In this document: positions 22,820 through 39,320 of the stretch, one piece after another
Numbering within the stretch: the stretch's first letter is position 1
Layout: each line of letters starts with the position of its first letter
Assembly: GCA_965205945.1 (NCBI GenBank)
Contig: CBDBIB010000001.1
Span: 544,001-608,000 of the forward strand
Origin: Bdellovibrionales bacterium
GTDB taxonomy: Bacteria > Bdellovibrionota > Bdellovibrionia > Bdellovibrionales > UBA1609
Direction: 5' to 3'
DNA length: 64,000 nt
Made by a program: the position numbers and the translations under genes
The notes under the pieces: generated by a model
The model's input: the letters and a program-made list of their open reading frames with translations, nothing else
Told to the model about the DNA's origin: nothing
The model's database searches: none

Positions 22820-23763
22820 TCATTGGTTTAGCTCCTATGGAGGGTGTTTTAGACCCTCTTATGAGAAAATTTATTACTAAAGTAAGCCATGTAAACTATT
22901 GCTCAACAGAGTTTGTTAGAGTTACGAATAAAGTACTCCCTAAGCATACTTTTTTTCATTATGCCCCCGAGCTAAACAATAACTCTAAAACTGAATCAGG
23001 AACCCCTGTGCTTGTACAATTACTAGGGGGGCAACCTGAATGTATGGCTGAAAATGCTTACTTAGCACTCTCTCTTGGAGCATATGGTATTGATATAAAC
23101 TTTGGCTGCCCGGCTAAAACCGTAAACCGTCATGATGGAGGGGCCTCTTTACTTAAATCCCCACAAAGACTTTTTAACACTATTTCAACTATAAGAAAAA
23201 AAATTGGTAATAACATACACCTTTCAGCAAAAGTTCGCCTAGGGTTTTCTGATAAAAGTAAGATTCTAGATATTTCAAAAGCCTGTTCTGATGCTGGGGC
23301 GAGTTGGCTTACCATTCACGCTAGAACAAAAGATGAAGCTTATAGACCTCCTGCTCACTGGCATTTAATAAAAAAAATGAAAGAGGTTTCAAATATACCT
23401 GTTTTTGCAAATGGTGACATTTGGGACCTTAAGGCTTATAAAAAATGTGTACTCGAATCAAGCTGCACTAATGTGATGATTGGACGAGGTCTTATAAGAA
23501 ATCCGTTTCTTGCATCTGAAATAAAAGAAAATATTGAACTTGATGCTGATTTAAAAAACCAAAACACTCTTAAGCTTATCCTTGCTTATTTAAATGAGGC
23601 TCAATTTTTATATGGTGAAAAAACCGCATTAGGCCGCATTAAACAATGGGTAAAAATATGCTCTCACCCTACAAACCTGTTTTTTAAAAATCTATTTGAA
23701 GAAATAAAAAAAATTCGTACTGCAAAAGAAATTATTAAACTTATGTCAAAGAAATTTATTTAA
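22816..23763 (+). CDS. dusC: tRNA-dihydrouridine synthase (DusC-like)
   Basis: LAPMEGV, TEFVRVT, DINFGCPAKTVNRHDGGA, TIHARTK and ANGDIW motifs; ATGA overlap with the EVE gene. Confidence 0.88.
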   Translation: MIIGLAPMEGVLDPLMRKFITKVSHVNYCSTEFVRVTNKVLPKHTFFHYAPELNNNSKTESGTPVLVQLLGGQPECMAENAYLALSLGAYGIDINFGCPAKTVNRHDGGASLLKSPQRLFNTISTIRKKIGNNIHLSAKVRLGFSDKSKILDISKACSDAGASWLTIHARTKDEAYRPPAHWHLIKKMKEVSNIPVFANGDIWDLKAYKKCVLESSCTNVMIGRGLIRNPFLASEIKENIELDADLKNQNTLKLILAYLNEAQFLYGEKTALGRIKQWVKICSHPTNLFFKNLFEEIKKIRTAKEIIKLMSKKFI

Positions 23764-24332
23764 AGAAAAACTCCTGCGCCGAAAGTTAGATCCATTGAGG
23801 AATAAGTTTTTCCACCTAAAAGATATTTTAAATTTCCTGAAAAAAACATTCTAGAATTCCAAATATAACGACCACCAAACCTTACAAAGGGGCCACCACG
23901 AATTTCACTATCAAGCTCTACAGATTTTAAAAACCTTTCCTCAACTCCAAACCCATAAAAATATGCTGTTTGGCCCACACCGTTAATATATACATTCCTA
24001 GCTTTAAACTCTGACTTAACAGGGCTCCCTTTAAAATAAAAATTTATAAAACCACCTAAACCAAAACTTAAATTTTCTTGACTAATTAAACTGGTTTGAG
24101 CTCCACCAAAAACCCCCATGGCAATTTTAGTAGAAAAATTTATTTCATACTCTGCACCAACAGCGCCCAATGCAATTCTTTTTATATCTTTACCACTATC
24201 GGCTTGAAATGTTTCATGCTGTAAGGCCATTGAAAACACTAGTGAATCCGCATAAGATTCGCTAATAATCATAAATAAAGCTATCAGCACTAATAAAAAT
24301 TTATTAGCTTGCTTTAAAAATTGTCTCATCAT
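23760..24332 (-). CDS. Putative small outer-membrane beta-barrel protein
   Basis: Signal peptide MMRQFLKQANKFLLVLIALFMIISESYA, alternating hydrophobic beta-strands and C-terminal DLTFGAGVFL. Start moved from 24452 to 24332. Confidence 0.7.
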   Translation of the reverse strand: MMRQFLKQANKFLLVLIALFMIISESYADSLVFSMALQHETFQADSGKDIKRIALGAVGAEYEINFSTKIAMGVFGGAQTSLISQENLSFGLGGFINFYFKGSPVKSEFKARNVYINGVGQTAYFYGFGVEERFLKSVELDSEIRGGPFVRFGGRYIWNSRMFFSGNLKYLLGGKTYSSMDLTFGAGVFL

Positions 24333-25986
24333 AATTCTGCGCGCCTTTATAGCTGTAGACTTTTTTGATCTTATTTCTAAAAACTCTCCAGTTAATATTT
24401 GTCTCTTTATTCTTAGAAATTTTTTCTTGAATTCTAAACTGTGTTCTTTCATCTAAAAGATTTATGGCTTCCTTATGATCAATACTGTGTTCTTTAAACC
24501 ATTTTATCTCAGACCCTGACAAATTAGTAAGAAATACTTTAAGTTTAGTTATATCTTCTAAATCAATCCAAGACATACAAGGTATTTCAGCTCTTAAAAC
24601 ATCATTACTTTTCATAGCATCAACTTTAGAAAGTTCACCTTCTGACAATCCATAAATCATATGCACTACTTTAGCATTAACAGATTTTTTCTCTGTGCCT
24701 GATACTTTAAAAGAGTCAGCATTAAGAAAATTTACAAAGCTTTTATACTGTTTATCGGTTGCATGATCTCTTAATGGATCAAACATCAATAAGTCATTAA
24801 TCTTATCTAAAACATTTGAGTCTGTAGATTCTGAAACAAAATTCATAAATTGATCTTTAAATAATTTATATAAAACAATATAATGCTCATTTAAACCATT
24901 TTTAAAAACCTCACTTAAATTATCAGCCTTAGTAGGATACATTGCACTAAATGCTTCTTCAACTAATGCATGAGGCTTAGCATACCTAAGCCTTGCAAGC
25001 GCTACAGAAATAACCGAAAGAGTATTTTTATTAAACCCTTTAGATCTTTGATTGTGCAAAACACTTGAAGCTCTTTTTTCAAAATTATAGACTTCATGAA
25101 TAACCTTATAAGTTTCGTTTAAAATAATTTCAGAAATTTGATTCTGAATTCGAATGATTTCATAAAATTGAATTTGTGTTTGAAGATCCGGCATATGTGC
25201 CCATAAAATATGAGCTGTAGATCCTGGAGATTTCTTATAAGCATCATTTATATTCTGACACAAAGATCCAAAATTAAAGGTTTCAAATTCATGACTATTT
25301 AACGAAATATCTGTGCCATTCTCTAATTCATTATTTTCTCTTTGAGTCTGAGCAACCTGTATACCTTCACCGCCACCAGACATAGTAACCTCACCATCAC
25401 CTTCAGATCTAGATTTCCAAACTCTTGCTAAAAACCACAATGCTACAATAAAACCAATGGAGAAAATTAAAATCCATAAAAATTGACCATTTTTTACTAA
25501 GGTTTTATATGCACCAAAAATAAAATCAGATTTAATATTGTTAACAGCATCTCCTAATTTTGGAGTATCATCTAAGACTGTAAATGCTGTATCTTCTGGA
25601 AGAAAAAGTCTTTCTTTAAGGGAGGATTTTACAAGGGCCATCTCTTCTTTAGAAATCTCTCTTTTTTGAATAAAAACAACTTTTCTTTCATAAAGATTTA
25701 AAACATTTTGTATTTTTGAATCATGTGCATTACCAGTTTTTTGATATAAACCAGGAAGGTTAACTATCAACTCTTCATCTAGCTTAGAATCTTGCCTCTT
25801 TAATTCAATACGAATAGTCAAACTGTCTTCTAATGTATAATCTTTTAAAAGCTGCTCGATTTCAATTTTATGATATTTACTAACAGTTTCATAATCTGAC
25901 TTTATACCAAAGGCATTAGACAGTATAAAAAATAACAATGCCAACACTAATACCGTCTTTTTAATTAAGTTTTTAACTAAACCCAC
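24304..25986 (-). CDS. Membrane protein with a putative FliF-like periplasmic ring-building domain and FliG-like cytoplasmic domains
   Basis: N-terminal signal or TM, periplasmic alpha/beta domain, TM FLWILIFSIGFIVALWFL, Gly-rich linker, then a helical region patterned like FliG-M and FliG-C. Lies directly downstream of motB. The domain call is by eye only. Confidence 0.6.
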   Translation of the reverse strand: MGLVKNLIKKTVLVLALLFFILSNAFGIKSDYETVSKYHKIEIEQLLKDYTLEDSLTIRIELKRQDSKLDEELIVNLPGLYQKTGNAHDSKIQNVLNLYERKVVFIQKREISKEEMALVKSSLKERLFLPEDTAFTVLDDTPKLGDAVNNIKSDFIFGAYKTLVKNGQFLWILIFSIGFIVALWFLARVWKSRSEGDGEVTMSGGGEGIQVAQTQRENNELENGTDISLNSHEFETFNFGSLCQNINDAYKKSPGSTAHILWAHMPDLQTQIQFYEIIRIQNQISEIILNETYKVIHEVYNFEKRASSVLHNQRSKGFNKNTLSVISVALARLRYAKPHALVEEAFSAMYPTKADNLSEVFKNGLNEHYIVLYKLFKDQFMNFVSESTDSNVLDKINDLLMFDPLRDHATDKQYKSFVNFLNADSFKVSGTEKKSVNAKVVHMIYGLSEGELSKVDAMKSNDVLRAEIPCMSWIDLEDITKLKVFLTNLSGSEIKWFKEHSIDHKEAINLLDERTQFRIQEKISKNKETNINWRVFRNKIKKVYSYKGAQNYDETIFKAS

Positions 25987-26007
25987 AACACTCCCCTCCT
26001 TCTACTA

Positions 26008-26763
26008 TTATAATACTAAATCTACAAAACTATTTGCTTTATCATCTGCGATCTGCACTCTGACCTCTATACGTCTATTTTTTAAGCCTTTGATTGGAAT
26101 ATACTTATCACTCGAAGGACTTCTATCATTCACTAGCGGCAATGCTGAACCATATCCAACAACCCTAATCCTAGATTCTAACAGTTGATTAGAAATTAAA
26201 ACATTCGCTGCCTGAGATGCTCTTAAAGAACTTAAGTTTAAATTTGTTTTATACGAAGACATTGGATTAACAGCTAAACTGTCTGAATGCCCCTCTACCT
26301 TAATCAAGATTTTATCTTGATAAGGTTTTAGCAAGCCTGCAACTCCTTTTAAAACTTTATGACCATTTGGTTTTAAAATAAAACTCCCTATATGAAAAAA
26401 ATCTCTCTCATATAATCTTAAAAGAATTTCTCTTCTCCTTCTGTTAATACTCATATTAATTTTTTTAATTTCAAATTGAGCTAACTCAGATCTTACCTCT
26501 GCTTCGATTTTTGATAACATCTGAGCACGCATTCTATTCTTACCTTCATTTTTAGTGTTCTCACCTTGTGATTGATGCATATTTTTTCCAAGCTCAATAA
26601 GCATATCCTCATCAGCTTTTTTACTATGCTCATTTAAAAAAGTGATAAAAAAACATAACAGTAATGTAACCGTATCCGCATAAGAAATAACCCACATACT
26701 GCTACTATCTTTCCCATCGCCCTCAAAAATTGATACCTTACTCCTACCTAAATTATGCCGCAC
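26008..26763 (-). CDS. motB: MotB-family stator protein (TM plus OmpA-like peptidoglycan-binding domain)
   Basis: WVISYADTVTLLLCFF with the conserved Asp; VEGHSD, NLNLSSLRA, GYG and NRRIE motifs. Confidence 0.9.
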   Translation of the reverse strand: MRHNLGRSKVSIFEGDGKDSSSMWVISYADTVTLLLCFFITFLNEHSKKADEDMLIELGKNMHQSQGENTKNEGKNRMRAQMLSKIEAEVRSELAQFEIKKINMSINRRRREILLRLYERDFFHIGSFILKPNGHKVLKGVAGLLKPYQDKILIKVEGHSDSLAVNPMSSYKTNLNLSSLRASQAANVLISNQLLESRIRVVGYGSALPLVNDRSPSSDKYIPIKGLKNRRIEVRVQIADDKANSFVDLVL

Positions 26764-27553
26764 TCTTAGCTCCTAAACTACCACCAATATAATTAACGGC
26801 CTCTCTTGGCGGCATTAATGAGTTTATTGTGTCCTGAATAACTACTAAAGAGGCCCCATTTTTAACCAAAAGAGCCGTTTCCATAATCAACTGACGCATT
26901 TTAAAACTTTTCTTAGCTCCAATTTCTAAATTGTCTGAAATTGGACTAAAAATAAAATTTGAAATCATTAAACCATAAAGTGTTGTTGTTAAGGCAATAG
27001 CCATATACTGGCCCATTTCACCCATATTAATAGATTCACCCCCTATTGATGACATTAAAGCAATCAAACCGACAACAGTACCAACCATCCCAAAGGCAGG
27101 GGGATACTTTGACATTGATTTGATAATTCCTACTTCATACTTTTCATTATCAAATGTAGACATAATCCTTTGCTCAAGCATTTCTTTTATCTCTTGATCA
27201 TTATAGCCATCATTAATAAGAACTAAACAATCATTTAAAAAAGGATGTACAGTACCTATTGCGTCTGTAGGGGCCCCTTTAAATAAAGACATCTCTGCAA
27301 ACTTCATAAGATCCATACCCATTTTATGAAAACTCTTATCTTTTCTTAAAAAGATTTTCCCTATTACTGATATAACCCTTGTAACATCTGTCATAGAGTA
27401 AGAAAGAAGTACTGCTGAGATAGTCCCTCCTATAACAATTCCTAAACCTAATATATTAACAAAAAATTTTACATCCACACCAGATGTTAAAAATGTCATT
27501 GTCGCCACTGACAAAGCTAAACCTGCACCTATAATTGCGGATATTTTTCTCAT
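26753..27553 (-). CDS. motA: MotA/PomA-family stator protein
   Basis: IVIGGT, PPAFGMVGTVVGLI and MAIALTTTLYG..SNFIFSP motifs; overlaps motB. Confidence 0.9.
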   Translation of the reverse strand: MRKISAIIGAGLALSVATMTFLTSGVDVKFFVNILGLGIVIGGTISAVLLSYSMTDVTRVISVIGKIFLRKDKSFHKMGMDLMKFAEMSLFKGAPTDAIGTVHPFLNDCLVLINDGYNDQEIKEMLEQRIMSTFDNEKYEVGIIKSMSKYPPAFGMVGTVVGLIALMSSIGGESINMGEMGQYMAIALTTTLYGLMISNFIFSPISDNLEIGAKKSFKMRQLIMETALLVKNGASLVVIQDTINSLMPPREAVNYIGGSLGAKSAA

Positions 27554-27556
27554 TTC

Positions 27557-28195
27557 CTATCTCCCTATTTCTTTTTCTAACTGCTCAATAACTGATTTAA
27601 TTTCATAATTTTTAGAATATAAACTAAAGGATCTCTTATAAGAGTTTAAAGCACTTTTCTTATTACCTTTTAAATAACTTAAATTTCCTTCTAAAAGACT
27701 CACCACAGCTCCAGGTGTTTTTAGTCTCTTTAAATTTATAACTTCTGCTCCAGCTTTACTAAACTCACCCCGTAAAAGCTGCTTTTGAAACGCTAGGACA
27801 CTTAAAATTTGAGAGGTGTTTAAATTCTGCATTTTTTCAACCATTTTTTCTTCAACTTCTAACGGAAGAAGCTTCTCTTTTCTTTTAAGCTTTACATTTA
27901 ACTCTCCTTGTTTCCAATCAGAAGGAAGAATCATTTGGTAATCCTCATATTTATCCGAAATAAATTTTAAATAAATAAAATCACCTTTTGCAATCTGTGT
28001 AAAATTCACTTCTAAGGGAGTTCTTCCTATTGAATTACCCAGGTCATGACTCCCATCTCCAAGAATGACCTCAGCTCCAGGGTTAGAGTTTATTTTAATA
28101 ACTTTACCCTTTTTAGGTAAGACTCCACACCCCACAAGGCTTAATATAAATACAGCACTTAAAATTTGAAACAATATTTTCTTATCTATATACAT
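27557..28195 (-). CDS. Lipoprotein with PEGA-like domain and C-terminal TPR-like helices
   Basis: Lipobox LVG-C; INSNPGAEV and IGRTPL (PEGA-like); LLEGNLSYLKGNKKSALNSYKRSFSL (TPR-like). Confidence 0.75.
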   Translation of the reverse strand: MYIDKKILFQILSAVFILSLVGCGVLPKKGKVIKINSNPGAEVILGDGSHDLGNSIGRTPLEVNFTQIAKGDFIYLKFISDKYEDYQMILPSDWKQGELNVKLKRKEKLLPLEVEEKMVEKMQNLNTSQILSVLAFQKQLLRGEFSKAGAEVINLKRLKTPGAVVSLLEGNLSYLKGNKKSALNSYKRSFSLYSKNYEIKSVIEQLEKEIGR

Positions 28196-28405: not shown

Positions 28406-31400
28406 TTAGTTTATAAACCTTAGTTGAGGATATCCATTAACAGGAACAATCCAAATTGTTATAAAATCCCAGCCTGTATAAATTGAATTGTCATAATCTT
28501 GCATTTCCATAGTCGTATGGCCTGAAACACTGCTGCCTATTGTAATAGAGCCATTACCAGTTGCAAATGCTTTAGTTGAAACCTCTTTATCCCAAAAAGA
28601 ATTATTAATTGTATAAAAATTCCCATCCGACTTACCCAAAACACCACCACGATTAGTTGGACCACCTAAAACAGCTGAGGCTGAATAACAATTGTTAATA
28701 ATAATCGAACCCCCTATAAAATCATAACCACCAATAAGACCACCTGCTTGAGACCCTGCATAAACAGCTCCTAATGAGTAACAGTTTAAGATGTTCACAC
28801 TAGAGCCAGAACTTGCATTGATTTTACCTACTAACCCACCATACTGTAGGTTTTGGACAGCAAAATTTGTTCCCACCTGTGAAGTTGAAAAAACTTCAGA
28901 AATACTAAGCGTAGAATTAGACGCTCCATCAATAGAACCAATTAAGCCACCAACACCGCTAAATGACGTATCCACCAAACCTTTAGAATATGATTTTGAA
29001 ATTAACGATGTCTCTAATTCACCAACAGAAACCTTACCTATGAGTCCACCAACCTCACTACCTCCAGAAACTAAACCTCCAGTTGCGTAAGAATTACTAA
29101 GTGTAGAATTTAACATCTCACCAATTAGTCCACCTGATGAATTCATAACATTATGATTTGCTGTAGAATATACATTTGAAATACTTGCATTACTTGCATA
29201 ACCGATGACTCCACCAGCTCTCCTTCCTGTAGAAGTAACCGGTATTTTTGAATATACATTTATAACTGTACCCTCTAAGGTTCCAGCAATACCACCAACA
29301 TTATCTACTGCTAAAACAGCTCCATTTTCTGTATATGAATTTGTAATTGATGCTCCAGATTTAACTTCACCAACTAATCCACCTGCAGTATTGCCAGTTG
29401 CCTGAACTACAGCTCTTGAAAAAGAGCTCTTAAGTTGTTTATTTTCTCCTAGGTTTCCAAACAATCCACCAATATTATTCGTACCCGTAACCATTCCTTC
29501 AGAATAAATTGAACTAAAAACCCCTCCTAAATTAGGCCCCGATAATCCAACAATACCCCCTCCGTACCCAGTAAGGCCACTTGCAGTAACCGTTCCAATA
29601 AAATAAGATTCTGTTACTTCAAAATTTAGATGTTCACCTGACTTTCTTCCAATCAAGCCACCAACATAATCCTCTGCCGTAATATTACCTGTAACAAAAA
29701 CATTTGAAATAAGACCTGTTTTGTTATTTCCACCTTCAGCCACACCAATAATACCACCAACTGATTGAGTAGCCGTAATATCAACATTAACAAGTCCTAA
29801 ATTAGAGACTTGAAAATCTCCAATTACATGACCCAAGAATCCAACATTAAATTGAGCATTGTTATACGTCCAATTTAAAATAATATGCCCATCCCCATCA
29901 AAGTTTCCTGAAAATTTTTGAGTTGTATTTCCCAGAGGATCAAAACTAATATTCATTAAATCAATATTTTTGCCAAGTTTATAGTACTTTCCTGAATCTG
30001 AATTCTGCCTAACATTAGCTAAATGTGTTTCATCACAAATAATATAAGGATCAGCTATACTTTCCCCTGAACCTGCAGCAAAATGTGTATCCCAAGAATT
30101 CGTATCTTCGCACAATGTTGGACTAAAACTATAGGTATATCCATTTGACAAGGTATCTTCTGATTTAACTATATTTCCTAAGAAGGCCGGATTGTTAACC
30201 TTAGTTCTAACCCTAACCTCAACACCACCCGGAGCTTGAGCTTGCGGCGTTATACAAGTCAATGCTTTTTCACTAAGCACATTAACATTGGTACAGGTTT
30301 TACCAGAAATAAGAACCTCAGTATCTTCTCCCACGCCGTTATCATTATCTGAGCTAAACCCTGTTCCATAAACAACAATAAGTTGGTTACCTTGAACAGG
30401 TCCAGCCGTTCCTTTAACGCTTGTAATCGTTAAGATGTTATTAATATCTACGGTAACATTTGCTCTAGACTCATTTCCTTGCTCATCTCTTACTATCAGT
30501 AAATAGTTAATTTTTCTATTTAAATCTGGAGGACCGCTTAGTGGATCCAAATTTAAAGCGTTAGCTGTTGAGATTGTTCCGTTAGTAATTAATGTTGATC
30601 CAAGCCCTCTATAAACAACTTCATCTGTATTTGCTGCAAGGTCCCCCATCTCTGAAACCCTTCTTCTAATTTCAACTTGTAAATCTGCATTATCTGAAGT
30701 GTTATCACTCATCTCCCACTCTAACTCCCACACTTTTGATTTAATAGTTTTTGTAGAAACTAAATTTATAATACTAGGGGGTGTTACGTCAGGAACATTA
30801 AGGTTTCTAGTCAACTGATCACACGTGGTATTGTTTGAGGCATCCTTTGCACAAACAGTATAGTAATATATTTGTGCCTCAATAAGACCACTGTCTTGAA
30901 AAGATAGCATTGTAGTTGATGTTTTTAAATTCCCACTTGGCCTAGATGGATTTAAAAAGTCAAAAGGAGCATTGTTGCTATAAATCTCATATCTAATTTC
31001 AGCTCCAGGCTCTGATGCGTACTGATTATCTATAGCAGAATCCCAAGATAAAACAAACGTTGGCGAAGCTCCAATAGTTAACTTAGAATCAAATATGGGA
31101 GCTGTACTATCAATAGTTCTTTTATCTGAATAGTTACTTACAGGATCTAAATACAGTGTTTCATTATTAACATTATCATATGCTCTTACGTGAAGTCTAT
31201 ACGTTCTATAAGAATCTAATCCATTTACTGTACATTGAGTAATGTTATCCGAACAACCATAGTCAGCACAAGGACATGTCCTCATTAAGGTTAATACATT
31301 AGTTAAAGGATCCACTTGATACACTCTAAACCCTCTATAATCTGTCCAATCTGCTGGTGCATTCCATTTAACCGTAAATTCACCTTCTCTAGGTGTTAAA

Positions 31401-33190
31401 ATTTCTGAAGGTCCTTTAATACCAATAAAATTAGGAGGAGGTGTCACGTCAAAAACTGTTGTCGATCTAAAAACCCCTGTTGTTGAGCAATTCTGTACAC
31501 CAAATGGGGACTCTGTCATGTCACATGCTTCTACTAAAGCATAAACATCATCATTATCTAAAATTGAAAATTCAGTATTGGAAATTGATGCACCCGTTGA
31601 CGACACTGCATGGCTTTTTAATAAAACTACAGGGTTTTGAGGAAGTTCGGATTGATTTGCCCATAATGTTATTTTATACTCTTTAATATCAGAAGCCGTG
31701 CTTGCATTCCATGAAAGGTCTAAAAATTGGCTCTGATCATTAAAAGCTATTCCTTGAATACCAATAAAATCTGGAGGCGTGATGTCTAATGTGTTTAGTT
31801 GTAATGAATTGTTATTTGTTGAAATATTCCCTGCTAAATCAACAACCTTAATACATACGGAATGATATAATTTTTCACTTAAACCTATTAAATCAAAATT
31901 TACGACTGCTTGAGCCGTATAGTTTGAAACATTAAGCTCTTCTTGTTGTACTCCAGAGACACACGAATTACTTGTAATCGGAGATGGACTAGATAATAAA
32001 AAAATTCTATACTTGTCTCCGCCATTTATAGGATCTACAAGTTCTGTAGCAATCCCTATCCACGATAAAGACATAACAGAGTCTGCAGGAACTCCTCTAA
32101 CCATATTTAAAATCCCACCAAAACTTGGAGGTGTAATATCTACTACATTAATTGTCTGAAAACTTGAGACTACAGATCTATTCCCCGTAGGATCTTCATC
32201 TTGAACAATAATATTATATGTTTGACCTTCTTGAAGAGAACTCAGATCTAATTCTTGCGGAGGAGAATGTAAATCATCACCTGATAAAAGATATGTTTTT
32301 TCTAATACGTAATCTCCAATGTTTGTTCCCCCTGTAGCACCTTTACGTACATATATATATCTTCTAGAAATTCCCCCTTGAACCTGTGTCCAAGGTGCTG
32401 TTATTTTTAAAATTCCATTTTCAAGAGCTAATTTAGAGGCTCCGGTAGTAAGCGGAGCTCCACCATCAGAAGTAAACACTGTTTGTTGAACTGTATTAGT
32501 TTCACAAGTGTCACCCTCTGAACAAGCCCTTACACCAAAAACATAATTAAGCTCATCACCCAGACCACTAAGTACCACCTCTGCTGGACTTCCTTGTAAA
32601 ACAACAGCCCTTGGAGGGGCTGTCCAATCTAGATTGCTGCCTACATTCGCAAAAATTTTATATGAATAAGCCGACACTGGATCATCAGCAATAGATGACT
32701 CCCATGTCACTTTTACTGAATGTGGATCTACTTCTACAGCTGCTGTAATTCCTATAAATACCGGAGCATTGATTGCAAGTGTAGACAATTGAAGATTATT
32801 TGTTCCTTCAGACCACACACCATCAACTAAAGCCTCACATGTATATAAATATGTAGCACCCTCTCTAAGCCCATCATCATCTATATGAGAAGTTATAGCA
32901 TTTGCTCTAGAAAACTCTGCAATTTGATTTCCGTTTCTTCTAAGTCTAATTCTTAAAGCTTCTTCTGGAAAAAGGAAATTTAATTCTATACTTTTTGTTC
33001 CAACACCCTGCCCATCTACACAACCAATATAATCAAACTTACCCTCACCTTCACCACCAGAACCCCCTACACCCCCACTACTACTTGTAGCCTGACCTGA
33101 GATGCTCTCTATAACACAACCCGTTTGCGCTACTAAAACCACAATAAAGCTAAATAAATATATTTTTTTTATGAAAGACTTAAAACTCAT
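28406..33190 (-). CDS. Large Cys-containing surface lipoprotein or adhesin with Fn3-like repeats, an IPT/TIG domain and a GLUG-repeat domain
   Basis: Signal ending QTG-C. Repeated D-x-T-P-P-x-F-x-G-I modules. GPVQGNQLIVVYGTGF..LTCITP (IPT/TIG). AGSGESIADPYII, many VGGLIG repeats and WDF..W..NGYPQL (GLUG-type). Confidence 0.8.
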   Translation of the reverse strand: MSFKSFIKKIYLFSFIVVLVAQTGCVIESISGQATSSSGGVGGSGGEGEGKFDYIGCVDGQGVGTKSIELNFLFPEEALRIRLRRNGNQIAEFSRANAITSHIDDDGLREGATYLYTCEALVDGVWSEGTNNLQLSTLAINAPVFIGITAAVEVDPHSVKVTWESSIADDPVSAYSYKIFANVGSNLDWTAPPRAVVLQGSPAEVVLSGLGDELNYVFGVRACSEGDTCETNTVQQTVFTSDGGAPLTTGASKLALENGILKITAPWTQVQGGISRRYIYVRKGATGGTNIGDYVLEKTYLLSGDDLHSPPQELDLSSLQEGQTYNIIVQDEDPTGNRSVVSSFQTINVVDITPPSFGGILNMVRGVPADSVMSLSWIGIATELVDPINGGDKYRIFLLSSPSPITSNSCVSGVQQEELNVSNYTAQAVVNFDLIGLSEKLYHSVCIKVVDLAGNISTNNNSLQLNTLDITPPDFIGIQGIAFNDQSQFLDLSWNASTASDIKEYKITLWANQSELPQNPVVLLKSHAVSSTGASISNTEFSILDNDDVYALVEACDMTESPFGVQNCSTTGVFRSTTVFDVTPPPNFIGIKGPSEILTPREGEFTVKWNAPADWTDYRGFRVYQVDPLTNVLTLMRTCPCADYGCSDNITQCTVNGLDSYRTYRLHVRAYDNVNNETLYLDPVSNYSDKRTIDSTAPIFDSKLTIGASPTFVLSWDSAIDNQYASEPGAEIRYEIYSNNAPFDFLNPSRPSGNLKTSTTMLSFQDSGLIEAQIYYYTVCAKDASNNTTCDQLTRNLNVPDVTPPSIINLVSTKTIKSKVWELEWEMSDNTSDNADLQVEIRRRVSEMGDLAANTDEVVYRGLGSTLITNGTISTANALNLDPLSGPPDLNRKINYLLIVRDEQGNESRANVTVDINNILTITSVKGTAGPVQGNQLIVVYGTGFSSDNDNGVGEDTEVLISGKTCTNVNVLSEKALTCITPQAQAPGGVEVRVRTKVNNPAFLGNIVKSEDTLSNGYTYSFSPTLCEDTNSWDTHFAAGSGESIADPYIICDETHLANVRQNSDSGKYYKLGKNIDLMNISFDPLGNTTQKFSGNFDGDGHIILNWTYNNAQFNVGFLGHVIGDFQVSNLGLVNVDITATQSVGGIIGVAEGGNNKTGLISNVFVTGNITAEDYVGGLIGRKSGEHLNFEVTESYFIGTVTASGLTGYGGGIVGLSGPNLGGVFSSIYSEGMVTGTNNIGGLFGNLGENKQLKSSFSRAVVQATGNTAGGLVGEVKSGASITNSYTENGAVLAVDNVGGIAGTLEGTVINVYSKIPVTSTGRRAGGVIGYASNASISNVYSTANHNVMNSSGGLIGEMLNSTLSNSYATGGLVSGGSEVGGLIGKVSVGELETSLISKSYSKGLVDTSFSGVGGLIGSIDGASNSTLSISEVFSTSQVGTNFAVQNLQYGGLVGKINASSGSSVNILNCYSLGAVYAGSQAGGLIGGYDFIGGSIIINNCYSASAVLGGPTNRGGVLGKSDGNFYTINNSFWDKEVSTKAFATGNGSITIGSSVSGHTTMEMQDYDNSIYTGWDFITIWIVPVNGYPQLRFIN

Positions 33191-33594: not shown

Positions 33595-34221
33595 ATGAGT
33601 AAGTTAAGATCAGTCACAGTAAAATCAGCTGTTTACGCTTGTTTAATGGGGGCTGTAGGGACCATAATATTATACGTTCCTTCTAATTGGTTTTTTAATG
33701 CCAAGAATAAACAAACTCTTATTCAGTCCACTGGCTTAGGAAAAACCTTAGATAATAAGATTTTTCCCATTGGAACAAAGCTTCCTCCCTTTAGTTTTAC
33801 AGATTTATTATCCGGAGAAATTTATCTTTTAGAAAAAGATTTAAAACCCATTAAGATTATAAATTTTTGGGCAAGTTGGTGTAAGCCTTGTGTGGAGGAG
33901 TTTTCATCCTTTGCCCGGTTAATTAAACAATTAAACAATCAAGTTTCTTTTATAGGAATAAATGAAGATAAAACCGTTGATACCGCAAAAGAGTTCTTAA
34001 AAGCTTTTAGTACAGATTTTAAAAATCTTAAGGGAACTTATTTTGGGTTTGATCAAGACAAGACCTTATTAAAAAAATATGGGGTTCTAGCTCTCCCAGA
34101 GAGTTTTTTAGTAGACCCTCATGGAAAACTTATTCAAAGAGTCTCAGGTTTTGAAAACTGGGACACTCCAGAGGCTATAAAGTATTTTAAAAATCTACTT
34201 AACAAATATAAGAAACGATGA
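33595..34221 (+). CDS. TlpA/ResA-family thiol:disulfide oxidoreductase
   Basis: N-terminal membrane anchor; INFWASWCKPC and YGVLALPESFLVD motifs. Confidence 0.92.
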   Translation: MSKLRSVTVKSAVYACLMGAVGTIILYVPSNWFFNAKNKQTLIQSTGLGKTLDNKIFPIGTKLPPFSFTDLLSGEIYLLEKDLKPIKIINFWASWCKPCVEEFSSFARLIKQLNNQVSFIGINEDKTVDTAKEFLKAFSTDFKNLKGTYFGFDQDKTLLKKYGVLALPESFLVDPHGKLIQRVSGFENWDTPEAIKYFKNLLNKYKKR

Positions 34222-35195
34222 TCATGGGATTTTTTAAACCTTATTTTAAACTTAATAAAGTTCTACTACAAAGTATGAGTGGAATAGTGTTTCTTATCAA
34301 TCCAAGCATTGAAGTAATTAAGAATGATTATAACTTAACAGATAAAAAAATAATTCAGCTCCCTTTTGAAATGGACAATGAGTACTTTAAAACACCTAAA
34401 GAAATTGATACGTTTTTTTTATCAGCTAACAGGGTGAGTACTAAGAATATTAATAAGTATCTTACAATATATAAACCGTTAATTTTAAGTGCTTCTAATA
34501 TTTTTAAAATACCTTTTTCATTTCAATCCTGTTTAATTTTTAAAGAATCAAGATTCGATAAGAATGCCTTAAGTGCAGTGGGTGCTATGGGAATGGCCCA
34601 GTTTACAAAAGATACTTATCACTTCTTATCTAGAGCCTTACGCATAGGGCAAAATTCTTTAGAACATAAAAGAAAAAAAATACTAAATACAAGTGAATTC
34701 TTTTTTGTTGAATCTAATAGCAACAAACTTTCATACCCTAAGTATAATACAAGAATTTTCACTAAAATATATAGAATGTGGCTGGCATACTTAATAAGCA
34801 ATGACTTAAAAGAAATAAACTTAAGCTCTAAATCATTTAAAAATATATTATATAAACCAGAGTATTCAATAGGGTTATCTTCAATGTACTTGTACTACTT
34901 AAAGTATCGTGTACGGTATGGAATACGTAAACATATTGATGATGAAGATCCTAATGATCCAAATTTTATCCTCAGCATTGCAGGAGCTTATAATCAAGGC
35001 CCTAGACGAGTTCTTAAAGCTATAAAAAAAGATAGTACACCAAAATTTTTAACATTGATTGCATATCAATCTAAAATTAGAGAAACAAAAGACTACATCA
35101 GCTCAATTAGAAATTGTATGAGGAAAAATTCAAATACAGATTATGTGTTAAAAAAGCATCTAAATACTAAAAAAATAACTTTAATTAATCTTTAA
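34218..35195 (+). CDS. Lytic transglycosylase (SLT domain)
   Basis: KESRF..A.S..GAMGMAQF, AGAYNQGP and ETKDY motifs; ATGA overlap with the TlpA gene. Confidence 0.85.
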   Translation: MIMGFFKPYFKLNKVLLQSMSGIVFLINPSIEVIKNDYNLTDKKIIQLPFEMDNEYFKTPKEIDTFFLSANRVSTKNINKYLTIYKPLILSASNIFKIPFSFQSCLIFKESRFDKNALSAVGAMGMAQFTKDTYHFLSRALRIGQNSLEHKRKKILNTSEFFFVESNSNKLSYPKYNTRIFTKIYRMWLAYLISNDLKEINLSSKSFKNILYKPEYSIGLSSMYLYYLKYRVRYGIRKHIDDEDPNDPNFILSIAGAYNQGPRRVLKAIKKDSTPKFLTLIAYQSKIRETKDYISSIRNCMRKNSNTDYVLKKHLNTKKITLINL

Positions 35196-35630: not shown

Positions 35631-38600
35631 TTAAAATTTCCCAACTACGTTAAAAAACCACCCATAACTATTAAAACTAAAATTTATAAGATCATCATTA
35701 AACCTAGTAAAGTTAAAACCTGTTCCCACTTTTAAATTGCCACCAAGGTGATAATCTAAGCCTACTAAAAAACCTTTTTGCAGATCTTTTGACTCTTTAA
35801 CCTGAACAAGCCTGTATTCAAAAATACCATCCCATTTTTTAATAAAATGATATCTTAATCTAATCTGTTCGAATGTAAGAGTTGTATCAACCCACAAACC
35901 ACTGTTTCTATTCACTCTTTGAGAGCCGATTTTTTGAGCAAGCCTTGCTCCCAACTCCCAACGCCTATTTAAGTCATATGTTCCCTCAACCGATCCAATA
36001 TGAACCTTCTGACTACCGCGAGCATTTGCTTGTGCTTGTGAATCCAAATCATACAGATACGTATATCTAGCAAAAAAATTCCAACGGTCTCTAAAAATAG
36101 GTCTAAGTGCATAACCTAAGTTCCCCTCTATATACCTTGCTAAAGCCTGAGTTGTATCCGTTGGATCTTCAGACAAAGAATAGTCTGCCTCTAAAAACCA
36201 AGTACTAGACGGACTCACTTTAAATTTTAAAGAGTTCGTTAATAACAACTGATCCAAATTTGTAACACCTTTATTCTTAACCAAAGAAACCTTAGAAGAT
36301 GCTGTAATATCTGTGTCTTTTGTATAAACAAACCCTAAACTAACAGCATTTTTACTTGTAACATCTCCTGTTAAATCGCTTTTAAGATCTCCCATTTGAT
36401 ATGAAAATGTCATCGATAACATTCTATTTAAGTTATAATCTAAACCATATAATTGGTTAATTCCAACACTGTCTCCTGTTTCTTGAAACTGATTTTCCGT
36501 AGTCATTCTTATTCCATTTTTAAAACTCTTACTCTGCCCAAGAGTAATCCCATTAGTAACAGGGCCACTTAAACTATCTACAGATTTATCTAAATTAGCA
36601 TATACCTTATGACCTTCTGTCACATTATAGCCAAGACCTGCCACTACAGCCTCTCCCCTATCTCCATTAGAATACTCTGTTGCTCCATCCCATTTACGAT
36701 TAATCTTAAACTTAGATCCTAATGCTGCACGATCATTTTTTCCGTAGCCACCCTTATACTTAGTAGTTGTTTGCCCTTTGACATAAACACTTAAACCAGG
36801 TTCTAATTTTTGACTATACTTTAGCCCAATTAAATGCCCTTCTTTTTTAGGCACAGATAAAGCTTCACTACTATCAATACGATACTCTAGACTGCTGCTA
36901 GCAGCACCCTCTTTAAACCTTCTACCATAAGAAATTATAAACGTATTTTTATCTACCCCATCTATCTCTTTTAAAAGGGCCATTTTAGATTTAATGATAT
37001 CTTTTTTATTAACATCAATCTCAAAATCATAACCATATTCTTTTAAATCATTTTGTGCTTGCCTTCTTGCAGTAGAAAACCCCTCTTCGTAGTCTCTATA
37101 CCATGTAGAAAAAACACCTTCTACTTTTGATTCCACAAAATCATTTAAAAAAAACTGTGACTCTACACCCCATGCTTTAGCTTTTGTAATAGGAGTTGCT
37201 GCCACAGGCTTTGCAATAAAACTCAACCCTCCATCTGTTGATTCAAAATTAGACCCTGACTGAATATCTTTTGTTTCTGAAGTTTCAGCCTTAACAAAGC
37301 TCTCTTTACCTAATCTTAATGTTGCATCTAAACCTGAAAGGTTATACTCAGATTTAATCCTACTTTCTTTCACATGTGTTCCACCTATGGAAACATAATC
37401 ACCAACCCACTGTTCAAGCCTCCCCCCATAAGTAAGAGTATTTAAGCTACCTCCTGTATCACTATATTCATAATCTGCAATTAAATAGTATTTATTATTT
37501 CCTATTCCATCAGGATCTATAACTTCATTAGAAGACTGCATCACAAACGTTGTTAAAGGTTGTGTAAGAACAACTCTTCCAGCCAAATAATCAAACTCGT
37601 AATGCTCATAAGGTTTTAATACAATCTGCTCTTTTAAACGCCCTGAATCTCTATACCTAACCTCAATAACTAGTTTCTCAGAGCCCTGTACAATATCATT
37701 ATGCTTTAATATATATAATCTACTACCTGTTCCTAAAAACTCATTGTGACCGAAAAGTGTTTCTGGTTCAGAAATAAAACCTGTAATTTTTGTTTTTTCT
37801 TCACCAAATTTTGTTTGAGATCTAGATTTGTGTTTTATATGTCCTCCATATAAAGTTCTATTGTATTGTGAAAATAAAGTGCTGGTTAAACCAGAATTTG
37901 CGTTACCCCACATAGCATGAGATTTATCCACTTCAATTTTTATATAAATTTTTCCTAATGTTGGAGTTGTTTGAATTGTTGTTGAATTATCACCGTATAC
38001 AGGGTAATATCTATCCGGATCTAATCTTCTAAACAAAGCCTCAGAATTTTTACGATGTAAGCCTTTAAAAATATCTCTAACATCCCCTTCTGTTGTATCT
38101 AATTTTGAAGTGAGCAAATACTTTCCTTTAACTTTTCCTTTTAAAAAATATGCTAATCTACCATCTAAAAAAACCTTTCCATCATATTCATCCGTGCTTA
38201 CGATTCCTGCAACTTTCTCACTTAAGCGATTTTCTCCAACCCTCATGTCGGCAAGTCCAATCATAAAAAAATATTTTCCAGAAACATCTACACTAAAAGG
38301 CACAGTAAAAACCTCATTGTTTGTCTTATCTTGAATGTCAATTTTGATTTTATGTTTCCCTATTGGAAAGTGTTCTTCAATAACAAATTTACCTTGCTCA
38401 TCTACTCGAACAGACTGACCTCGATAAGAAATGAAATGATCTTTTGGTATATTATTACCCACAAGTCTTACACGGCTACCTTTTATTACAATGTTTTGTT
38501 TTTCAACACTAGAATGACCCCAAATCTCAGCAATAGCATTGGACTCAATAAAACTATCTTTTTCATCTAAATTCTGATTTACAGATTTTTTAATAAAGGT

Positions 38601-39320
38601 GATTTTTTTAACTCTTACAATATCAAAAACTCTCTTTGACTCAAAAACTTTAAATTCATAATATAAAGAATCTCCAATATTATATTCTTTTTCATCAAAC
38701 TTATACTCTATATCATAAATAGAATTTGAATCTCCCTTTAAAGTTTTAATATCTATTTGAGAACTAAGTTTTCCTTTTTTAAATATCCTAAGTTCCCAAT
38801 TTTTAATAAAGGGTAAATAATTTGTATAAACTCTAAATTTAAGGCTGCCTGGTTTAAGCTCTACTTCTTTTTCAGTAGTGATCTCTAGCTGTGGAGATGT
38901 TATACCAGAATCTTCCGTCGCCCATATGGCAGCACCGTTTCTTAAACGAACTCTCCCTTCATAAAAAACATCAACTCTTCTTTGAAGTTGAAGTTCATTA
39001 TCTAGGTCTTTTCTCATTTTAACTGTTGTCACATCTTTAGAATCTAAAGCTCCATCTTTTTTTTCTTCCCCAGATGCAGGGCCTCTCAATTTTTCAGGTT
39101 CAGGGTAATCCTCTCCAAAACCTTGCGCTTCAAACATCCCCTTAGTTTCTTTCGGGTAACCCTTTGTAAACGCTGCTGGCACTCGACCTTTTGCATTATC
39201 TAACTCTAGATTCCCCGGAGTAACCTCTGCATTTGAAACTCCTACTGAGAGAAACAACAGGCAGAAGACAAAAACTTTTTTATCTACTTTCCTCTTTATT
39301 TTTCCCATCATATTCTCCAC
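35631..39320 (-). CDS. Large outer-membrane protein with a C-terminal beta-barrel; partner of the giant DUF11 protein
   Basis: Signal peptide (true start may be ATG 39311 or 39308). DGRLAYFLKGK and DPDRYYPVYGDNS motifs. Long amphipathic beta-strand C-terminal half ending YGWFFNVVGKF with terminal Phe. Overlaps the end of the giant gene. Confidence 0.8.
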   Translation of the reverse strand: MENMMGKIKRKVDKKVFVFCLLFLSVGVSNAEVTPGNLELDNAKGRVPAAFTKGYPKETKGMFEAQGFGEDYPEPEKLRGPASGEEKKDGALDSKDVTTVKMRKDLDNELQLQRRVDVFYEGRVRLRNGAAIWATEDSGITSPQLEITTEKEVELKPGSLKFRVYTNYLPFIKNWELRIFKKGKLSSQIDIKTLKGDSNSIYDIEYKFDEKEYNIGDSLYYEFKVFESKRVFDIVRVKKITFIKKSVNQNLDEKDSFIESNAIAEIWGHSSVEKQNIVIKGSRVRLVGNNIPKDHFISYRGQSVRVDEQGKFVIEEHFPIGKHKIKIDIQDKTNNEVFTVPFSVDVSGKYFFMIGLADMRVGENRLSEKVAGIVSTDEYDGKVFLDGRLAYFLKGKVKGKYLLTSKLDTTEGDVRDIFKGLHRKNSEALFRRLDPDRYYPVYGDNSTTIQTTPTLGKIYIKIEVDKSHAMWGNANSGLTSTLFSQYNRTLYGGHIKHKSRSQTKFGEEKTKITGFISEPETLFGHNEFLGTGSRLYILKHNDIVQGSEKLVIEVRYRDSGRLKEQIVLKPYEHYEFDYLAGRVVLTQPLTTFVMQSSNEVIDPDGIGNNKYYLIADYEYSDTGGSLNTLTYGGRLEQWVGDYVSIGGTHVKESRIKSEYNLSGLDATLRLGKESFVKAETSETKDIQSGSNFESTDGGLSFIAKPVAATPITKAKAWGVESQFFLNDFVESKVEGVFSTWYRDYEEGFSTARRQAQNDLKEYGYDFEIDVNKKDIIKSKMALLKEIDGVDKNTFIISYGRRFKEGAASSSLEYRIDSSEALSVPKKEGHLIGLKYSQKLEPGLSVYVKGQTTTKYKGGYGKNDRAALGSKFKINRKWDGATEYSNGDRGEAVVAGLGYNVTEGHKVYANLDKSVDSLSGPVTNGITLGQSKSFKNGIRMTTENQFQETGDSVGINQLYGLDYNLNRMLSMTFSYQMGDLKSDLTGDVTSKNAVSLGFVYTKDTDITASSKVSLVKNKGVTNLDQLLLTNSLKFKVSPSSTWFLEADYSLSEDPTDTTQALARYIEGNLGYALRPIFRDRWNFFARYTYLYDLDSQAQANARGSQKVHIGSVEGTYDLNRRWELGARLAQKIGSQRVNRNSGLWVDTTLTFEQIRLRYHFIKKWDGIFEYRLVQVKESKDLQKGFLVGLDYHLGGNLKVGTGFNFTRFNDDLINFSFNSYGWFFNVVGKF

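Follow-up and report, generated by a model that had tools for sequence, protein, structure and literature searches.

Stators of the flagellar MotAB type and the rotor protein FliG are regarded as specific to the flagellum, and a 2025 phylogeny of stators defines its 'FIT' clade as flagellum-specific in the parts of that paper at hand (PMC12505986). In print, the closest precedent for the gene studied here is, from the sections of the preprint available, a FliF-FliG fusion of the Chlamydiaceae of ~330 residues that carries RBM2, one RBM-like domain and a FliG_M-like end (bioRxiv 10.1101/023564, Bergeron). Going by the title of another report, a Vibrio FliF-FliG fusion forms rings in the membrane (PMC10941966), and the title of PDB entry 8ftf refers to a 33-mer ring made of RBM3 alone. 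In the main texts of the literature searched, we found no description of a MotAB-linked FliF-FliG fusion outside flagella, and the Chlamydiaceae protein was the sole natural fusion. Here, we analyse a gene, X, in a stretch of 64,000 nucleotides (nt) from contig CBDBIB010000001.1 of a Bdellovibrionales bacterium; we call this whole stretch the window, the family of the gene A-type and its sister family B-type. The gene is real and conserved, and it is a new, extreme FliF/FliG rotor variant that has its own flagellar-type stator in a flagellum-less genome. The stator and its FliF-FliG-derived partner persist together without six other flagellar markers, conserved in an operon with outer-membrane and adhesin genes. 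Because the fusion follows its own MotA/MotB pair in a bacterium without flagellum genes, the locus suggests that the core of the flagellar motor has been reused for another cell-envelope machine.

A previous sequence-only reading of the locus had placed the open reading frame (ORF) at 24304..25986. It lies exactly there, on the minus strand, and all the strings quoted from it occur in the translation. The gene and the parts of its predicted product, including a transmembrane (TM) helix, are arranged as follows:

24304..25986, minus strand: fusion gene X (A-type), 560 residues, GTG start; putative mini-FliF(RBM3)-TM-FliG-like fusion
25906..25986, minus strand: residues 1-27, N-terminal signal peptide or uncleaved anchor, with 3 Lys and a hydrophobic core, ending in ..NAFG and followed by IK
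25558..25905, minus strand: residues 28-143, predicted periplasmic RBM-like domain resembling FliF RBM3, with an insert at 66-98 that contains PGLYQKTG
25414..25500, minus strand: residues 163-191, predicted TM helix corresponding to TM2 of FliF, with R/K residues directly after it
25285..25413, minus strand: residues 192-234, Gly/acid-rich cytoplasmic linker, poorly conserved, with a model confidence (pLDDT) of 25-30
24325..25284, minus strand: residues 235-554, predicted cytoplasmic region of helices only; from ~269 on, it is colinear with N, M and C of full-length FliG
24706..24927, minus strand: residues 354-427, region resembling the FliG middle domain (ARM_M) by VIA match
24346..24585, minus strand: residues 468-547, region resembling the FliG C-terminal (torque) domain, with IPCMSW and the LDER514..R518..E521 helix

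The hydropathy profile of the protein has just two hydrophobic segments (2-31 and 163-191), and 3 Lys are among the first 10 residues of the chain. An A-x-A/G site at the N-terminal segment is kept across the alignment, and GQFLWI..W..K is invariant at the TM helix in the A-type family. The predicted topology is therefore an N-terminal signal or anchor, a periplasmic part at ~28-162, one TM helix and a cytoplasmic C-terminal region of ~370 residues, the last because there are only these two hydrophobic segments with their flanking positive charges. It puts the FliG-like part in the cytoplasm and not in the periplasm, the placement that the sequence-only reading had regarded as incompatible with its proposal. 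As a prediction, the protein has the layout of FliF, in which a periplasmic part lies between two membrane segments and the C-terminus is cytoplasmic. RBM1, RBM2 (the PrgK-homology region) and the full beta-collar are all missing from the fusion, and its periplasmic part of ~140 residues holds a single RBM and an insert of ~33 residues. The best explanation is that the FliF part retains just the RBM3-type ring-building domain, between the N-terminal anchor and the TM helix. The protein is well conserved among the 38 homologues found: mean column identity is 59% over 34 of them, with 77 invariant positions, and length and architecture are the same throughout the 22 representatives at the 50% clustering level. 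Taking these data together with those given below, we consider it very probable that the gene encodes a natural fusion of a FliF ring domain, a TM helix and FliG.

The homology of the two halves is best traced through the sister family. Pfam FliG_C matches were found in 43 of 61 related genomes, mostly in canonical FliG proteins of ~345 residues, and they also fell within open frames of 568-610 residues in relatives; 12 such loci were taken for comparison. These B-type loci have the gene order of the window (large secreted protein, lipoprotein of ~200 residues, MotA, MotB, protein of 557-601 residues, signal-peptide protein of ~197 residues), some of them in rearranged form. In Pfam, FliG_C is listed for all 12 B-type proteins (E <=0.0053; over the curated cut-off in 8), FliG_M for 7, MgtE_N for 4 and FliG_N for 2. 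A profile of their cytoplasmic part retrieves 30 canonical FliG proteins with hmmsearch (E 3e-25 to 1.5e-17), and hhalign aligns it with FliG residues 16-337 at a probability of 97-98% (98.2%, E 4.7e-14, for the C-half). The periplasmic part aligns with FliF (20 relatives plus Escherichia coli) at a probability of 90.2% (E 1.5e-6, score 59.9), the score being 20.6 for the reversed profile and at most 20.5 for 30 column-shuffled ones. This alignment covers residues 372-435 of E. coli FliF, i.e., the second half of RBM3 (RBM3b), and a weak second alignment, colinear with it, covers FliF 232-271. The B-type linker matches the extreme C-terminus of FliF over 26 columns (P 0.0054), directly before the FliG_N match (P 8.9e-4). 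By these profile alignments, the B-type proteins are literal fusions of FliF (RBM3, TM2 and C-terminus) with FliG.

The A-type and B-type families can in turn be aligned with each other. Over residues 1-261, the hhalign probability is 96.5% (E 7.5e-10), and the cytoplasmic halves align over 217 colinear columns across the M and C regions (score 36.8, P 3.1e-4; 18.5 for the reversed control and at most 16.9 for 30 column shuffles). Against 21 FliF sequences, the A-type profile scores 25.9 (P 0.037), with target residues 109-180 on E. coli FliF 394-466, TM helix included. Homology to RBM3 is thus indicated by sequence for the B-type family and only suggestive for the target; homology of the target to FliG is indicated by profile comparison via the B-type family only, the direct comparison being negative. 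In sum, the B-type fusions of Bdellovibrionota match the target in length, topology and operon, and their N-halves are alignable, but they retain scores to Pfam FliG_C, FliG_M and FliG_N and an alignment to FliF RBM3, both of which are missing in the A-type. The resemblance to the C-terminal helix of FliF that the sequence-only reading had seen in the linker of the target itself was not significant (P 0.37). PF08345 (YscJ_FliF_C) is listed by Pfam neither for the target nor for the 12 B-type proteins. In databases, relatives are called 'hypothetical protein' or bear the automatic name 'FliG C-terminal domain-containing', and a word-index search with a B-type protein gave 3 matches, all named 'hypothetical protein'.

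Predicted structures gave a second line of evidence. AlphaFold2 run on the full alignment reached a mean pLDDT of 73, and the cytoplasmic part folded separately (232-560) one of 84. The periplasmic model consists of a helix (32-49), a strand (56-64), a low-confidence insert (66-86) with a helix (89-96), a strand (99-107), a helix (113-127) and a strand (135-139); the helix-strand-insert-strand-helix-strand order that had been read from the letters is thus reproduced. It is the fold of RBM3 (alpha-beta-beta-alpha-beta, with an insertion after the first strand). When Foldseek candidates were compared by VIA-align, FliF RBM3 scored Z 7.1-8.1 (root-mean-square deviation (rmsd) 3.1-3.5 Å over 88-94 residues, across FliF 232-438), in alignments that bridge the FliF insertion and involve at least 10 MS-ring entries. 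These scores are above those of EscJ (6.8), SpoIIIAG (6.4), PrgK (6.4) and SpoIIIAF (6.1). Taken alone, this match of a model would indicate an RBM-like fold and not FliF ancestry, because a Z below 8 can reflect a common arrangement, as the tool itself warns.

For the cytoplasmic model, Foldseek against 350,542 PDB chains put FliG or C-ring entries (chains of 227-331 residues) at ranks 1-7, at E-values of 0.14-1.3, none of them significant; 11 of the top 14 came from FliG entries, with alignments that span 200-333 columns. A VIA search of 48,161 representative chains, made independently of Foldseek, again had FliG at ranks 1-3 and 8 FliG-domain entries in the top 20. Rank 1 was FliG_M of 3soh_B (Z 5.4, rmsd 3.2, 70 of 80 residues) and ranks 2-3 were the full-length FliG of 3hjl and 8umd_B; FliG_M of 4fq0_D (Z 4.6, 76 of 80 residues) and the FliG C-terminal domain of 1qc7_B (Z 4.3, 80 of 89 residues) were also matched. 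In a second VIA comparison, 13 FliG chains and one MgtE N-domain reached Z 4.2-5.5, and the other folds all stayed at 2.9 or less. The longest alignment places residues 38-323 of the model on 4-331 of 8umx_B, with 258 colinear residues (Z 5.5). The ranking of FliG thus appears specific and colinear in these models despite the low absolute Z, which can be ascribed to the three flexibly linked helical domains of this part. Both similarities proposed from the letters, to an RBM fold (FliF RBM3, Z 7-8.1) and to FliG (Z 4.2-5.5, up to 258 residues), therefore recur in structure. In the ESM Atlas, a language-model search with the whole protein points the same way: all 10 matches listed are FliG-bearing clusters (FliG_C or FliG_M in part of the members), the best with a score of 0.93 and 200 of 256 shared features.

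Some ESM Atlas observations concern the look-alikes themselves. Their clusters comprise proteins of 478-625 residues, with Myxococcota, Cloacimonadota, Pseudomonadota or Elusimicrobiota given as the commonest phylum, and in two clusters YscJ_FliF_C occurs as well, in 22% and 55% of the members. Such fusions may extend far beyond Bdellovibrionota.

Residues were mapped onto the torque helix of FliG by a chained alignment from the target to the B-type and on to E. coli FliG; its first link has low confidence (P 0.03), and we regard the mapping as suggestive. It places IPCMSWIDLED on the MFLFENL region of E. coli FliG and LLDER514TQFR518IQE521K on NMSQR281AADILRD288D289, and in this way reproduces two equations of the sequence-only reading, that of CMSWIDL with MF.FE.L and that of LLDERTQFRIQEKI with NMS.R....L.EE. 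R514 would then correspond to R281 and E521 to D288. All 28 family members have both residues, and 27-28 of them have D512, R518, R537 and K539. In the parts available, a recent paper quotes R281, D288 and D289 of FliG as contacts of E98 and R90 of MotA (PMC12505986). The equation of EHY with the EHP(QR) motif of FliG fared less well, since hhalign puts the EHPQ of FliG elsewhere and the family of 28 sequences does not conserve the His. By the VIA ranges (model 123-196 on chain 113-186), EHY (367-369) does come near EHPQ, if the latter lies at about residues 125-128 of FliG, as we assume.

The fusion gene is the fourth in a tight minus-strand operon that encodes a lipoprotein, MotA, MotB, the fusion and a small barrel. 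Its neighbours are, in the order of transcription:

28406..33190, minus strand: secreted/surface protein, 1594 residues, with FN3, TIG and GLUG (Pfam); same orientation, upstream
27557..28195, minus strand: lipoprotein gene, 212 residues, LVGC lipobox
26753..27553, minus strand: motA/pomA-like gene, 266 residues, overlapping motB by 11 nt
26008..26763, minus strand: motB-like gene, 251 residues, with plug, channel Asp (SYAD) and OmpA peptidoglycan-binding domain
25995..26000, minus strand: Shine-Dalgarno AGGAGG, read from the sequence, 8 nt before the GTG of the fusion gene
23760..24332, minus strand: signal-peptide protein of ~190 residues, a probable small beta-barrel of the outer membrane; the gene starts (ATG at 24332) within the last 29 nt of the fusion gene

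Throughout the operon, genes overlap or are separated by gaps of 3-29 nt: motA starts 3 nt past the lipoprotein gene, and 21 nt lie between the stop of motB and the fusion gene. The gene of the 1594-residue protein ends 210 nt before that of the lipoprotein.

The upstream pair is, to judge by sequence, a flagellar-type MotA/MotB stator. MotA matches Pfam MotA_ExbB (6.2e-19), its best NCBIfam family is PomA (115.9 bits, under the equivalog cut-off), and its PDB sequence matches are all flagellar MotA/PomA (9 of 9, E 2e-25 to 1e-18). MotB matches OmpA (8.8e-15) and MotB_plug (9.9e-8) in Pfam, with the NCBIfam MotB families below cut-off. All 7 cluster MotAs have equivalents of P173 and P222 of E. 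coli MotA, and all 7 cluster MotBs have the channel Asp (Y-[AG]-D), counts that exclude the TPR lipoproteins L015 and L016. In the HMMER alignment to PomA, D97 stands opposite an acid at chain position 96, and no basic residue stands opposite 88/89. In the genome as a whole, matches to the MotA_ExbB family number 7, on contigs C1, C2 and C3, and one of them is in a 449-residue frame beside a 175-residue frame (C1:95805-96662). For B. bacteriovorus, three motAB pairs are described, all of them ascribed to the flagellum in the parts of the paper available (PMC13689555).

The association of fusion and stator recurs among relatives. MotB lies immediately 5' of the fusion gene in all 5 primary A-type loci of the genus (the window and 4 others), and MotA or MotB was found within the examined stretch at 13 of 20 fusion loci. 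Three complete genomes (3.8-4.2 Mb) from a well-sampled genus of the order have 9 MotA_ExbB matches each, and in all three the fusion gene is preceded, at a distance of 4-6 kb and on the same strand, by a MotA gene; these B-type loci are G174:C1:3405528-3411831, G150:C1:3101768-3108118 and G260:C1:288474-294785. The other neighbours recur too. The lipoprotein of the window has no significant Pfam match, and its counterparts in sister loci are PEGA/TPR lipoproteins (TPR in 7 of 7 scanned, PEGA also in 2 of 7). The small downstream protein has a weak OMP_b-brl match in 5 of 7 counterparts and none in the window copy. A large protein (900-1560 residues; FN3/Ig plus an FG-GAP or NHL propeller) adjoins 7 of 7 sister loci scanned. 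One arrangement of the cluster, that of the B-type loci L049, L050, L052 and L053, has directly upstream of the fusion a gene for a protein of 304-343 residues that begins with a TM segment and matches nothing in Pfam.

The source genome (1.87 Mb in 5 contigs, 97.3% complete, 0.08% contaminated) gave no match for any of six flagellar marker families, PF01514 (YscJ_FliF), PF01706 (FliG_C), PF00771 (FHIPEP, i.e., FlhA), PF01052 (FliMN_C), PF00669 (Flagellin_N) and PF00460 (Flg_bb_rod), each of which was found in 4 flagellated control genomes. Because of this absence, any function of the fusion would be flagellum-free. All 5 genomes of the genus carry the A-type gene, genome G001 in 3 copies and G002 in 2, and it was found in none of the other 32 genera of the family searched. 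Canonical FliG was found in none of these 5 genomes, and their sole FliG_C match is a 586-residue B-type frame in G002. In the phylum, the B-type profile matches 256 of 301 sampled genomes at E <=1e-5, mostly through canonical FliG. The best match is at E <=1e-30 in 66 of the 301 (count from the per-genome table), and the matches listed at this level are near-full-length ones in frames of 541-718 residues. In flagellated relatives, B-type fusions stand alongside canonical FliF and FliG (e.g., G042, G007 and G028). Because of this coexistence, the fusions are better seen as a separate system than as a remnant of the flagellum.

These data on architecture, predicted topology, homology via the sister family, synteny and absent flagellar markers lead us to a reading that we hold to be fairly probable: the protein would be a strongly diverged fusion in which a reduced FliF is joined to a complete FliG-like part (N, M and C), and would serve as partner of the adjacent MotAB on the cytoplasmic face, independently of a flagellum. 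In such a machine, the periplasmic RBM domains would assemble copies of the fusion into a ring in the inner membrane (for FliF, a ring of about 33-34 subunits), and the ring would display the FliG_C-like domains, with the R514/E521 helix, on its cytoplasmic side. MotAB, anchored to the peptidoglycan, would let ions flow via the Asp of MotB and push on this helix, so that the ring turns or steps, and the motion would be relayed in the periplasm to the TPR lipoprotein and the small outer-membrane barrel and ultimately to the giant adhesin-like protein. Of the single-gene MS-ring plus rotor proposed by the sequence-only reading, the fusion architecture is borne out by the topology, the structural matches and the sister family, and we infer the ring, its rotation and its output. 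The argument for ring formation is wholly one of analogy, with the RBM3 ring of 8ftf and the Vibrio FliF-FliG fusion (PMC10941966), both as given in titles.

Several results weigh against this reading. Direct sequence searches with the fusion were negative: no family matched it in Pfam (E up to 1) or NCBIfam, the Pfam FliG and FliF models match none of 28 A-type members (with identities down to 18%), and the A-type profile (34 homologues) retrieved no chain among all PDB sequences. The hhalign comparison of the A-type family with canonical FliG gave P 0.29-0.46, and a search of the 1,876 ORFs of the genome with a FliG profile and the B-type cytoplasmic profile left the fusion gene unranked. 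The Z-scores are low (at most 5.5 for the helical part and 8.1 for the RBM), within the tool's range of 'common arrangement', and the KH-like domain of ribosomal protein S3 ties with FliF RBM3 at Z 8.1. The periplasmic part is small, with only ~140 residues. At the putative interface, 22 of the 28 members have K or R at the position of D289 (522), the positions of K264 and R297 are variable, and equivalents of MotA R90 and E98 were not placed, the MAFFT alignment with E. coli MotA being unreliable in the cytoplasmic loop. Three paralogous A-type loci in G001 and G002 encode an OmpA-only protein and a TPR lipoprotein in place of MotAB. Finally, with no rod, export gate or FliM/N, the genome encodes no known carrier of rotation to the outside. 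Regarding the three paralogous loci (L014, L015 and L016), the neighbouring OmpA-domain protein has ~200 residues and no MotB plug, and the examined flank has no MotAB; these paralogues may share the stator of the primary locus. Two wider searches with A-type profiles gave related results: the C-half profile returned many FliG rows in hmmsearch at E 0.3-5, which is not significant, and the family profile retrieved 22 of 1.84 billion protein representatives, all from its own family, with no bridge to FliG.

The main rival keeps the same homology and dispenses with the rotor. In this account, which we think unlikely, the fusion is a static inner-membrane scaffold or force transducer that docks MotAB via its FliG_C-like domain and passes conformational work to the envelope, e.g., to hold, secrete or tension the adhesin, by the logic of TonB/TolA with ExbBD/TolQR or of Myxococcus Agl-Glt, and with no closed ring. 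It would fit a genome without axle, rod or export apparatus, the small periplasmic domain, and a set of co-encoded partners (outer-membrane lipoprotein, outer-membrane barrel and adhesin) that suits an envelope-spanning linkage. RBM folds also occur where no ring is made, as the tie with the KH-like domain of S3 illustrates, and other 5:2 motors power non-rotary outputs, according to the parts seen of two papers (PMC13104615, PMC12505986). What speaks for a ring is the kind of domain that was retained, which is specifically of the FliF RBM3 type with the insertion at the same position and which gives 33-mer rings on its own according to the title of 8ftf, together with the whole FliG N-M-C array, which in flagella polymerises around the ring.

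If the homology itself is doubted, the similarity could be convergent or generic, an unrelated alpha-beta-beta-alpha-beta domain joined to armadillo-like repeats in an accessory of a MotAB-like channel, with no ancestry in FliF or FliG. The uniformly negative direct searches are what one would expect of it, as are the low Z-scores, helical repeats and RBM/KH-like folds being common. We nevertheless consider it improbable, since the N-half aligns at 96.5% with that of the FliG-bearing B-type and the C-half is colinear with a P of 3.1e-4, above all 31 controls; length, operon and neighbours are identical in the two families; two structure searches made independently of each other both rank FliG first, clearly ahead of other folds; and invariant residues fall on R281 and D288 in the chained alignment, with the ESM Atlas in agreement. 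A reading of the gene as a leftover from a lost flagellum, in decay and with no present function, is barely credible: the six markers are indeed all absent and the FliG-like part is too diverged for Pfam, but the frame is intact behind a strong Shine-Dalgarno, the 34 homologues keep a mean column identity of 59% and 77 invariant positions, 5 of 5 genomes of the genus have the gene and two have extra paralogues, and flagellated relatives have B-type fusions in addition to canonical FliF and FliG.

The preferred reading, a diverged FliF-FliG fusion working with MotAB, can be extended to the whole six-gene module (adhesin, TPR lipoprotein, MotA, MotB, fusion and outer-membrane barrel), which would then be a self-contained, flagellum-independent rotary motor that drives an adhesin or envelope process; we put this forward tentatively and think it somewhat doubtful. 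The module could be the motor of gliding or prey attachment in Bdellovibrionota, a candidacy that arises because full-length sister fusions occur in about one-fifth of the genomes sampled across the phylum, among them complete ones of 3.6-4.2 Mb from one well-sampled genus. Alternatively, it could be a living minimal rotor-stator pair of relevance to the origin of the flagellar motor. If the fusion forms a turning ring, the best-known rotary motor of biology would have been put to a new use, in a far simpler form with one rotor and two stator proteins; such a form would lend itself to structural and single-molecule studies and to thinking about how the motor arose. If it is a static scaffold instead, the FliG-like domains would be docking sites for MotA outside flagella. 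The cluster is a concrete candidate that is accessible in cultivable relatives with B-type genes.

Some further features of the window and the proteins deserve mention. An ORF of 7421 residues (39280-61545, minus strand) has ~49 DUF11 repeats with CARDB, bMG10 and other Ig-like domains, and is followed by one of 1229 residues without Pfam match (35631-39320, minus strand). In this genome of 1.87 Mb, the 33 kb upstream of the motor operon thus encode three giant proteins of surface type (7421, 1229 and 1594 residues). Divergently from the 1594-residue adhesin-like gene, the plus strand at 33595-35195 encodes an AhpC/TSA-type redoxin and an SLT-domain lytic transglycosylase. Nearly all of the 28 A-type proteins have ...KAS or ...AA at the C-terminus (24304-24315 in the window), and the C-termini of the cluster MotAs (26753-26770 for the window copy) are also rich in Ala (...KSAA, ...KNAA, ...KKAA and ...RSA); a proteolysis tag is one idea for these common tails, which we offer as an assumption.

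How the locus relates to known systems depends on the part considered. Like GldLM/T9SS (type IX secretion system) gliding, AglRQS-Glt, ExbBD-TonB and TolQR-TolA, it would combine an ion-driven motor of the inner membrane with periplasmic or outer-membrane partners, and as in the gliding systems, large surface adhesins are encoded with the motor (PMC13104615, PMC12505986, in the parts available). Those motors belong to non-flagellar (GIT) or unrelated stator classes and act on periplasmic arms of the TonB, TolA or GldM type, and in the same parts of these two papers no FliG-like cytoplasmic partner is reported for such non-flagellar 5:2 motors. The Chlamydiaceae fusion, as described in the available sections of the preprint, is likewise natural, has a shortened FliF with two TM segments, a reduced RBM region and a cytosolic FliG-like end, and occurs in bacteria deemed non-flagellated. 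It is discussed there as a partner of a type III secretion system (through CdsQ) and not of MotAB (bioRxiv 10.1101/023564), whereas the fusion described here has RBM3 and a FliG N-M-C array that is complete down to the torque domain, and its own stator is encoded next to it. The engineered or spontaneous fusions of Salmonella and Vibrio, as far as the sources seen describe them, join full-length FliF to FliG within a complete flagellum; the present one is natural, truncated and has no flagellum around it. Compared with the flagellar core, it lacks RBM1 and RBM2, with a remnant of ~33 residues at the position of the beta-collar, its sequence is beyond the reach of the Pfam FliF and FliG models, its genome is without FliM/N, export gate, rod, hook or filament, and its neighbours are a TPR lipoprotein, an outer-membrane barrel and a giant adhesin. 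It shares with that core an RBM3-type domain, a TM helix, the FliG N-M-C array, putative equivalents of an Arg and an acid of the torque helix (R514 and E521) and an adjacent stator of the MotA/PomA kind, with MotB plug, channel Asp and OmpA domain, and it unites in one polypeptide what the flagellum builds from two.

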